DNA from: Escherichia coli
GTDB lineage: Bacteria > Pseudomonadota > Gammaproteobacteria > Enterobacterales > Enterobacteriaceae
Direction: 5' to 3' (one strand)
Assembly (NCBI RefSeq): GCF_003334315.1
Contig: NZ_QOWR01000016.1
Length of the DNA: 64,000 bases
The notes under the pieces are model-generated. The model had not been told where the DNA came from. It saw only the letters and a list, made by a program, of their open reading frames with translations, and searched no databases. Positions 34,852-37,078 of this stretch are shown here, one piece after another (the stretch's first letter is position 1; every line of letters begins with the position of its first letter). Position numbers and translations under genes: made by a program.

Positions 34852-36285
34852 CTAATTGTTCTGATAAATATCTTTATACAAACGGCTTTCAAAACGCACT
34901 AACGGAATACGGCGATTACGCTGATCCGCAGGTTCTACTGCATAGCCAGAAAGATATTGCACAAACGCCATTCGTTGCCCGCTCGCTGTGGTAATGAATC
35001 CCGCCAGGTTATATACCCCCTGCAACGAACCGGTTTTCGCTGAGACTTTTCCATCCACGCCCGCCTGATGCAGACCTGCACGGTACTGCAAAGAGCCGTC
35101 ATAGCCCGCCAGCGGCAGCATGGAGATAAAGTTAAGTTCATTGTCGTGTTGGGCAATGTATTGCAGCACCTGCATCATGGTGGCGGGGGCAATCAGGTTA
35201 TGCCGCGAAAGCCCTGAACCATCGGCAATAATGGTGTTTCCAATATCGACACCGGCTTGCTGGCGCAGGATCTGACGCACGGCGTCCGACCCGGCCCGCC
35301 ATGTTCCAGGCACATTGAAGCGCGCATGGCCTATCATGCGGAAAACCGTATCGGCGATCATGTTGTCCGACTTTTTCAGCATAATCTTAAGCAGATCGTG
35401 CAGCGGGGCCGACTGTTTACTGGCAACTACCGTTCCAGGTTCGTTAACCTGAGTCTGGCGCAGCAGTGTTCCGCTCCAGGTGATACCCGCCTGTTTTAAC
35501 TCATCTTTCAGAATTGCACCGGCATAGCTGGCTCCATCCTGCACGGCAAAAGCCAACGGGAGCGGCTCAGAACGTTGTGGCAGGCATCCCGTCAGCGTAA
35601 AGCGGTTCAGGTCGCCTGGCACCACATCCAGTTCGCAGTATTGCGCTTCGGCAGAACCACGGGGGAGGGTGCGTACCTGGCTGAACATCGTAACGGGGTA
35701 ATAAGATGCCACGCGTATAAAAGCCATATCACCAGGCTTTGGGGCACTGTAGAGCGAGACGGAGAAACAGTTGCGGTCAACTATGGCGGCGGCAGGCGGA
35801 GCGCTAAAGCATTGTGTCATGTCATTCCATGGCCAGCCGGGGGCTTTATCGTGGCTGGCGAAAATGGAGGTATCTATCAACACATTGCCATCGATTTGGT
35901 TGACGCCAGATTTTTTCAAAGTCGCGACCATATTGCGAATTTCCTGACGTTTTAACGTCGGATCGGCACCAAATCGCGCCACTAAGTCACCCTTAAGTAC
36001 GCCGTTTTCCACATTGCCTTTGGTTTCAAGCGTCGTGGTAAAACGAAAATCGGGGCCGAGTTGAATCAACGCCGCCAGCGCAGTAATCACTTTCTGGGTA
36101 CTGGCAGGCAGCGCCATCTGCTGACTGTGGTAATCAATAGCGGGGGCCGACGCGCCGACTTTTTGCACCATCAGGGCAAGGTTGGCACCAGCGGGGAGTT
36201 GAGTAATGTACTCATCAACATTTGCGGCCTGAACACTGAACGCTATACAGCTGGTCAATCCGATGATAAATCTGGAAAATCGCAT
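34852..36285 (-). CDS. dacB: D-alanyl-D-alanine carboxypeptidase/endopeptidase PBP4
   Basis: 477-aa ORF; signal peptide; active-site motifs STQK, SDN, KTG. Confidence 0.97.
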   Translation of the reverse strand: MRFSRFIIGLTSCIAFSVQAANVDEYITQLPAGANLALMVQKVGASAPAIDYHSQQMALPASTQKVITALAALIQLGPDFRFTTTLETKGNVENGVLKGDLVARFGADPTLKRQEIRNMVATLKKSGVNQIDGNVLIDTSIFASHDKAPGWPWNDMTQCFSAPPAAAIVDRNCFSVSLYSAPKPGDMAFIRVASYYPVTMFSQVRTLPRGSAEAQYCELDVVPGDLNRFTLTGCLPQRSEPLPLAFAVQDGASYAGAILKDELKQAGITWSGTLLRQTQVNEPGTVVASKQSAPLHDLLKIMLKKSDNMIADTVFRMIGHARFNVPGTWRAGSDAVRQILRQQAGVDIGNTIIADGSGLSRHNLIAPATMMQVLQYIAQHDNELNFISMLPLAGYDGSLQYRAGLHQAGVDGKVSAKTGSLQGVYNLAGFITTASGQRMAFVQYLSGYAVEPADQRNRRIPLVRFESRLYKDIYQNN

Positions 36286-36361
36286 AATCTCGCGCTAACA
36301 ACCTGGAATCGAGCCGTCATACTACGGCGCAACGCCCTATAAAGTAAACGATGACCCTTCG

Positions 36362-36389
36362 GGAACTTCAGGGTAAAATGACTATCAAA
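36362..36389 (+). promoter_or_regulatory. sigmaE-type promoter upstream of greA (-35 GGAACTT, 16-bp spacer, -10 TCAAA)
   Basis: GGAACTT 36362-36368 and TCAAA 36385-36389 match sigma-E consensus GGAACTT-N16-TCAAA. Confidence 0.55.
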
Positions 36390-36404
36390 ATGTGAATTGT
36401 AGCT

Positions 36405-36438
36405 GACCTGGGACTTGTACCCGGGTCGGTATTTTTTT
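36405..36438 (+). terminator. greA leader terminator (3' end of short GraL-type leader transcript)
   Basis: 8-bp stem gacctggg / cccgggtc followed by ggtattttttt, about 15 nt downstream of the sigmaE -10 and 95 nt upstream of greA ATG. Confidence 0.45.
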
Positions 36439-36532
36439 GCTTCTGGTCCCGGTGAGGAGTTATGCCGGGCAGGCCGAACAGCCGGGGTGGGTGAAGACTT
36501 GCCCCATCAGGAATATTCAAGAGGTATAACAA

Positions 36533-37009
<477 letters not shown>

Positions 37010-37052: not shown

Positions 37053-37078
37053 AAAAAGGCCGCTATGCGGCCTTTTAT
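37053..37078. terminator. bidirectional intrinsic terminator between convergent greA and yhbY
   Basis: ggccgc tat gcggcc stem flanked by aaaaa upstream and tttt downstream. Confidence 0.7.

Follow-up and report, generated by a model that had tools for sequence, protein, structure and literature searches.

Which RNA does the short stretch of DNA in front of greA give rise to in E. coli, and how does it bear on greA expression? We addressed this at one locus in a 64-kb stretch of E. coli DNA (the window, meaning the whole stretch that was analysed). The original prediction described a sigma-E promoter followed almost at once by an intrinsic terminator, and took the arrangement for a GraL-type greA leader. 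Our analysis leaves little room for doubt that the element is the E. coli greA promoter-leader region that produces the small RNA GraL. The positions of its parts are collected in Table 1.

The window carries the gene order of the E. coli chromosomal locus (obgE, dacB, greA, yhbY, rlmE, ftsH). Its GreA protein was 100% identical to MG1655 GreA, and 10 listed E. coli records name the gene greA. All 5426 complete E. coli genomes of the collection contained the 255-nt dacB-greA intergenic stretch at an identity of at least 95%, many of them at 100%. We observed that the 112-nt promoter-terminator segment (36341-36452) was exactly the MG1655 sequence, so the published experiments apply directly to the window. 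On the 3′ side of the terminator, two leader positions and one synonymous codon differed from MG1655. A GraL RNA gene was absent from the RefSeq feature table of MG1655. On the other side of greA, between the convergent greA and yhbY, positions 37054-37076 hold a perfect 10-bp hairpin (AAAAGGCCGC-TAT-GCGGCCTTTT) with A-runs and T-runs flanking it on both strands, as fits a bidirectional intrinsic terminator; weak, sub-threshold Rfam matches to STnc420 and STnc540 at these positions reflect the hairpin alone.

The Rfam family RF01769 ("Enterobacteria greA leader") matched positions 36316-36437 on the plus strand with 127.5 bits (E = 1.3e-24; gathering score 60). The alignment was full-length, with model positions 1-124 corresponding to 36316-36437. 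The element belongs to this family by position, lying on the same strand directly 5′ of greA and divergent from dacB, and by its terminator, an 11-bp stem followed by AU7GCU2. The GraL assignment was thus confirmed by the family match and by two experimental descriptions. GraL is the name given to an array of short RNAs by Potrykus et al. 2010 (NAR 38:1636; PMC2836576), and Dylewski et al. 2019 (IJMS 20:5224; PMC6829880) provided the second description of the leader. A search for later GraL literature gave PMC6829880 and one paper citing it, and nothing further. The element is therefore a rediscovery and nothing new: published descriptions go back to 2010, and Rfam has a curated family for it. 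What is said here of its function comes from the published work on the identical sequence; the motifs, the hairpin, the conservation, the covariation and the RF01769 membership were computed here.

Table 1. Coordinates of the greA promoter-leader region and its flanking genes in the window.
Feature	Position	Strand	Details
dacB (PBP4)	34852-36285	-	divergent from greA; 247-bp intergenic region common to both
Conserved block 5′ of the promoters	36316-36350	+	first part of the RF01769 model; outside the P1 and P2 transcripts
greA P1, sigma-70 promoter	36351-36379	+	-35 ATGACC 36351-36356; 17-nt spacer; -10 TAAAAT 36374-36379
P1 start	+1 = A36384	+	from PMC6829880 numbering (greA AUG +150, hairpin +19 to +48)
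greA P2, sigma-E promoter	36362-36389	+	-35 GGAACTT 36362-36368; 16-nt spacer; -10 TCAAA 36385-36389
P2 start	+1 about A36395	+	11 bp 3′ of the P1 start, from published P1-P2 spacing
GraL RNA array	36384-36442	+	5′ ends 36384 (P1) or ~36395 (P2); 3′ ends ~36432-36442
Terminator hairpin	36402-36430	+	5′ arm 36402-36412; loop 36413-36419 (7 nt); 3′ arm 36420-36430; 11 bp
U-rich termination tract	36431-36442	+	A-T7-GC-TT; U7 run 36432-36438; matches published AU7GCU2
Read-through leader	36443-36532	+	predicted hairpins ~36448-36469 and 36484-36505; conserved Shine-Dalgarno AAGAGG 36519-36524
greA CDS	36533-37009	+	158 aa; ATG at 36533

A terminator scan and folding gave the same stem, with arms GCUGACCUGGG and CCCGGGUCGGU joined by 7 G-C, 1 A-U and 3 G-U pairs. 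The isolated hairpin folded at -18.6 kcal/mol (z = -4.8), and 0/200 shuffled sequences folded as well; with the U-tract included, z-scores were -4.1 to -4.8. The minimum free energy (MFE) structure coincided with the centroid and had a frequency of 0.51-0.70, indicating a single dominant structure. Numbered from the P1 start, the published terminator has its hairpin at +19 to +48, its tail end at +59 and the greA AUG at +150 (PMC6829880). These values correspond to 36402-36431 for the hairpin and 36442 for the tail end in the window, in agreement with our independent fold. The 8-bp GC hairpin first proposed at 36405-36427 is the upper core of this stem, but the full stem has 11 bp, and the core includes one A-U and one G-U pair. 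The U7 end at 36438, the greA ATG at 36533 and the 95 nt between them agreed with what had been predicted.

Published transcription experiments show what this hairpin does. Both E-sigma70 and E-sigmaE made full-length RNA together with short chains of 50-60 nt from P1 or 40-50 nt from P2 (PMC2836576). The short chains were physically released and insensitive to Gre factors, and were thus terminated, not paused; their cause is the intrinsic terminator, with its 11-bp stem and AU7GCU2 tail. Termination was ~60% in vitro and 66% in vivo, and both clusters of short chains were visible on northern blots (PMC2836576). GraL chains measure 49-59 nt from P1 and 37-47 nt from P2 (PMC6829880, PMC2836576). 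From these published lengths we infer GraL 3′ ends at ~36432-36442 in the window. The expectation that most transcripts would stop as a ~40-nt RNA was right in that about two-thirds of them stop, but the 3′ ends spread over ~10 nt and do not form one species. This spread of termination makes the greA leader a textbook oddity.

The GreA protein acts on its own leader. The original prediction had stated that GreA influences read-through. This holds in vivo, where the GreA level controls GraL abundance and read-through (PMC6829880), but the statement missed both the direction of the effect, which is towards more termination, and the lack of an effect in vitro. Deletion of greA raised a leader-lacZ fusion ~3-3.5-fold and lowered GraL ~4-fold, and supplying GreA reversed both changes (PMC2836576, PMC6829880). 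The effect required the catalytic residue D41 and was independent of the promoter. It also needed native GraL, in the segment from +1 to +18 as well as in the arms of the hairpin, whereas the downstream leader, Hfq and Nus factors were dispensable (PMC2836576, PMC6829880). It was not reproduced by in vitro transcription with purified components (PMC2836576, PMC6829880), which points to an accessory factor or an indirect route behind the GreA-enhanced termination.

Taken with the coordinates above, these data give the following course of events. Transcription begins at either of two overlapping promoters, sigma-70 P1 at 36384 or sigma-E P2 at ~36395, with starts 11 bp apart. RNA polymerase then makes a short unstructured stretch, ~18 nt long from P1 and ~7 nt long from P2, followed by the 11-bp hairpin and A-U7-GCUU. 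About two-thirds of the complexes release GraL (37-59 nt) with 3′ ends over ~10 nt, and the remaining third read 90 nt more into greA. The leaky terminator thereby sets greA expression and is the point at which GreA exerts negative feedback on greA in vivo. More GreA means more GraL and less read-through, given D41 and the native GraL sequence in cis.

A simpler account would have the terminator as a constitutive 'dimmer' on greA, with GraL an inert by-product and the sigma-E motif a stress-inducible input to greA. Termination efficiency is indeed constant over growth (PMC2836576), GraL overproduced in trans leaves greA expression unchanged (PMC2836576, PMC6829880), folding predicted no antiterminator alternative, and the authors wrote in 2010 that a direct trans target 'remains elusive' (PMC2836576). 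However, GraL overexpression improved fitness and changed more than 100 transcripts, and a scrambled GraL did not have these effects (PMC2836576). A later study cited in PMC6829880 named nudE as the likeliest trans target of GraL. Autoregulation by GreA needs the GraL sequence and not just any terminator (PMC6829880), and the sequences of the stem and of the unpaired 5′ segment vary less than base pairing alone would demand. We consider the inert by-product unlikely, and favour a leader whose RNA sequence takes part in feedback by GreA.

Two promoters feed this leader. A promoter scan found the P1 hexamers with 9/12 matches. In unstressed cells P1 alone gave about the same reporter activity as P1 and P2 together (PMC2836576); sigma-E is therefore not the main driver of the greA leader. 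Conservation within the dacB-greA intergenic region was highest at 36316-36350, upstream of both promoters, and positions 36319-36356 were retained in Photorhabdus despite divergence of the rest of the region. The 5′ 'helices' of RF01769 fall among the ~68 of 124 model positions that correspond to 36316-36383. These positions lie upstream of the P1 start at 36384 and are thus promoter DNA, not RNA. Within the block, AAAGTAAA (36341-36348) may be an UP-like element for greA. Alternatively, the block could hold the divergent dacB promoter: the minus strand from 36348 to 36319 contains a weak sigma-70-like candidate, TTTACT-N18-TAGTAT (8/12 matches).

The sigma-E promoter P2 lies within P1. GGAACTT-N16-TCAAA (12/12 consensus) occurred once as an exact match in the 64-kb window, both strands included. 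The mean number of exact matches by chance was 0.01, and 1/100 dinucleotide-preserving shuffles had any match. With one mismatch allowed this was still the only site, against an expected 0.35. The prediction of an exact sigma-E-type promoter at 36362-36389 was therefore borne out. Under the motif definition of Rhodius et al. 2006 (PMC1312014; GGAACTT, ~16 nt, TCAAA and a purine start ~6 nt downstream), the site agreed at 12/12 positions with a 16-nt spacer, and an invariant AA (36395-36396) lay 6-7 nt past TCAAA. The terminator had been placed within ~45 nt of the promoter, and we counted 44 nt from the P2 start at ~36395 to the end of U7. P2 was transcribed by E-sigmaE in vitro, with a start 11 bp 3′ of P1 and correspondingly shorter chains; P1 and P2 overlap, and both 5′ ends were mapped by primer extension (PMC2836576). 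Induction of sigma-E in vivo gave only a moderate rise of the native greA fusion (PMC6829880). Because of this moderate effect, and because P1 alone is about as active as P1 with P2, the sigma-E arm may be quantitatively minor. The original prediction was thus correct about P2, but it overlooked the overlapping sigma-70 P1 and the moderate in vivo effect of sigma-E.

We then assessed conservation of the promoters and the hairpin. A background sample, drawn from a species-level genome collection with a GreA coding motif, proved far too broad (6/120 stretches were from Enterobacterales); it also supplied the Vibrio and Pasteurellaceae loci described below. Among 100 greA upstream regions from across the bacteria, sigma-E motifs of at least 11/12 were found only in Escherichia (MG1655 and E. 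albertii, 12/12) and in Citrobacter and Enterobacter (11/12). These high-scoring motifs always stood at -171 or -172 from the greA ATG, and the other regions scored 6-10 at scattered positions. A second scan was seeded on the conserved block 5′ of the sigma-E motif, with the P1 -35 hexamer inside the seed, and produced 41 metagenomic loci. Pooled with the loci from genomes, they comprised 28 distinct leaders, whose GreA proteins were 86-100% identical to that of E. coli. The 28 leaders are conditioned on the upstream block and related by descent, and the counts that follow are not independent events. GAACT, TCAAA, the 16-nt spacer, TAAAAT, the P1 start A and the AA at the P2 start were invariant in 28/28 leaders. 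Positions between and beside the promoter motifs were 50-75% conserved. Rhodius et al. also place greA in the conserved core sigma-E regulon (PMC1312014), and conservation of the promoter in relatives, which defines that core, was seen here as an invariant motif and spacing in 28 distinct enterobacterial leaders.

The hairpin was conserved as a structure. Across the 28 leaders 98.4% of stem cells were paired; when the 3′ partners were slid by 1-3 columns as a control, pairing was 17-57%. Compensatory changes occurred at the top pair, which switched between G-C and A-U in 12 sequences, and at the bottom pair, where G-U became C-G in two. In the tail, T36432 and T36435-36438 were invariant and A36431 was variable. 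A non-conserved tail A and a conserved bottom G-U pair are also mentioned in PMC2836576, matching our alignment. RF01769 was found in all 11 enterobacterial leaders tested: ten others scored 113-126 bits and Photorhabdus scored 79 bits. Photorhabdus caribbeanensis kept the upstream block, a sigma-70 -10 element (TAGAAT) and a hairpin with an interrupted U-tract, and had CCAAGTC...ATTAA where the sigma-E motif would stand. The sigma-E arm is therefore lineage-restricted and not universal within Enterobacterales.

The same data bear on whether the sigma-E match is incidental, its conservation reflecting P1 (spacer, discriminator or start site) or a transcription-factor site. The motif does sit inside the P1 spacer and start region; TCAAA and the latter overlap (A36384-TCAAA), and P1 could account for some of the invariance of TCAAA. 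The near-equal activity of P1 alone, the moderate sigma-E response in vivo and the presence of P1 and hairpin but not the motif in Photorhabdus would also fit such a reading. Against it, chance predicts 0.01 exact 12/12 matches per window, and GAACT, although placed in the P1 spacer, where sigma-70 makes no demand on sequence, does not vary in 28/28 leaders and keeps a fixed 16-nt spacing. E-sigmaE starts 11 bp 3′ of P1 in vitro and makes shorter chains, the P2 5′ end was detected by primer extension (PMC2836576), and greA is in the core regulon (PMC1312014). An incidental match is thus very improbable, and we read P2 as a genuine sigma-E promoter.

Transcripts that pass the terminator continue through the rest of the greA 5′ UTR. 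Deletion of this part (NDS) showed that it is not needed for GreA autoregulation (PMC6829880). Its predicted GC-rich hairpins recurred in most enterobacterial leaders despite strong sequence divergence, and are lineage-specific. Consensus folding recovered the second hairpin alone, with limited covariation, and single-sequence z-scores were mixed (-0.6 to -5.0; E. coli -1.1, not significant). The primer-extension 5′ ends 'P3/P4' were thought by the authors to be post-transcriptional, that is, processing sites (PMC2836576). We considered a 10-codon ORF at 36462-36494 (MPGRPNSRGG, with a GAGGAG Shine-Dalgarno) as a leader peptide and rejected it, as it is not conserved: in E. albertii GTG replaces the ATG, and Citrobacter and Enterobacter lack the ORF, which probably arose by chance from the hairpin sequence. 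Two mechanically called ORFs that overlap the leader, at 36368-36538 (minus strand, 56 aa) and 36415-36615 (plus strand, 66 aa, out of the greA frame), were unsupported and treated as spurious.

A classical attenuator or riboswitch, in which a ligand, a ribosome or a protein toggles terminator and antiterminator folds, would suit a terminator that sits in a 5′ UTR and whose regulated output, read-through, varies with GreA level in vivo (PMC6829880), but is hardly credible here. Just 7-18 nt precede the hairpin, no leader peptide or ORF stands 5′ of the terminator, and the downstream 10-codon ORF is not conserved. One fold dominates (MFE frequency 0.51-0.70, MFE and centroid structures coinciding), and folding gave no antiterminator or other alternative pairing of the kind that exclusive folds and a sensor call for. 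Rfam matches up to E = 1 included no riboswitch family. The effector promotes termination instead of relieving it, and the authors were unable to assign the element to either class (PMC6829880). A leaky terminator under feedback by GreA remains our reading of the leader.

Hairpins also stand before greA outside Enterobacterales. In Vibrio bivalvicida and V. mexicanus a hairpin and U-rich tract lay 41-71 nt 5′ of greA, and in Rodentibacter rarus and a Haemophilus sp. ~30-65 nt 5′ of it. These four leaders had their own unrelated 11-14-bp hairpins with U-rich tracts UUUUGUUUUG, UUUUCUUUUU or UUUUGUUUUU, placed 30-45 nt before the greA ATG, and fold z-scores of -2.0 to -5.1. The gene 5′ of greA was divergent in each family (an OmpU-like porin in Vibrio, dacB in Pasteurellaceae), and the hairpins are therefore not terminators of an upstream gene. 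An RF01769 search of these Vibrio and Pasteurellaceae greA leaders did not detect the hairpins. They are candidate functional analogues of the GraL terminator. Should they prove functional, RNAs of the GraL type and GreA feedback would span several gammaproteobacterial families; we hold only tentatively, and with more doubt than confidence, that termination-based feedback extends this far through analogous, non-alignable structures. In the Rodentibacter stretch, positions 773-854 (minus strand) matched Rfam RF02904 (Aggregatibacter sRNA 69) with 50.7 bits (gathering score 43). This match lies in the dacB-greA intergenic region on the greA strand, 89-170 nt 5′ of the greA ATG. An sRNA family defined by RNA-seq thus also maps 5′ of greA in Pasteurellaceae.

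GreA acts globally as a transcription fidelity and anti-arrest factor, and it is through this leader that E. coli sets the GreA level and exerts feedback on it. Compared with GraL of E. coli K-12, the window element shows no material difference: it has the same locus, the same sequence over 36341-36452, the same P1/P2 overlap, the 11-bp stem, the AU7GCU2 tail and the greA AUG at +150 from P1. The RF01769 model differs in that it takes in ~68 nt of untranscribed promoter DNA as well. MicA, RybB and MicL are sigma-E-dependent sRNAs that depend on Hfq and repress outer-membrane protein or lpp mRNAs. Like them, GraL is a short RNA that runs from a consensus sigma-E promoter to an intrinsic terminator. 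Unlike them, it occupies the 5′ UTR of a protein-coding gene, has its terminator in common with the read-through greA mRNA and has a sigma-70 promoter as a second source; its autoregulatory role does not require Hfq (PMC6829880). The Listeria SreA riboswitch RNA (cited in PMC6829880) resembles GraL in that transcription stops early in a leader and leaves a stable short RNA with a reported role in trans. In contrast to SreA, GraL has neither a ligand-binding aptamer nor an antiterminator, and its effector, GreA with an implied accessory factor, promotes termination.
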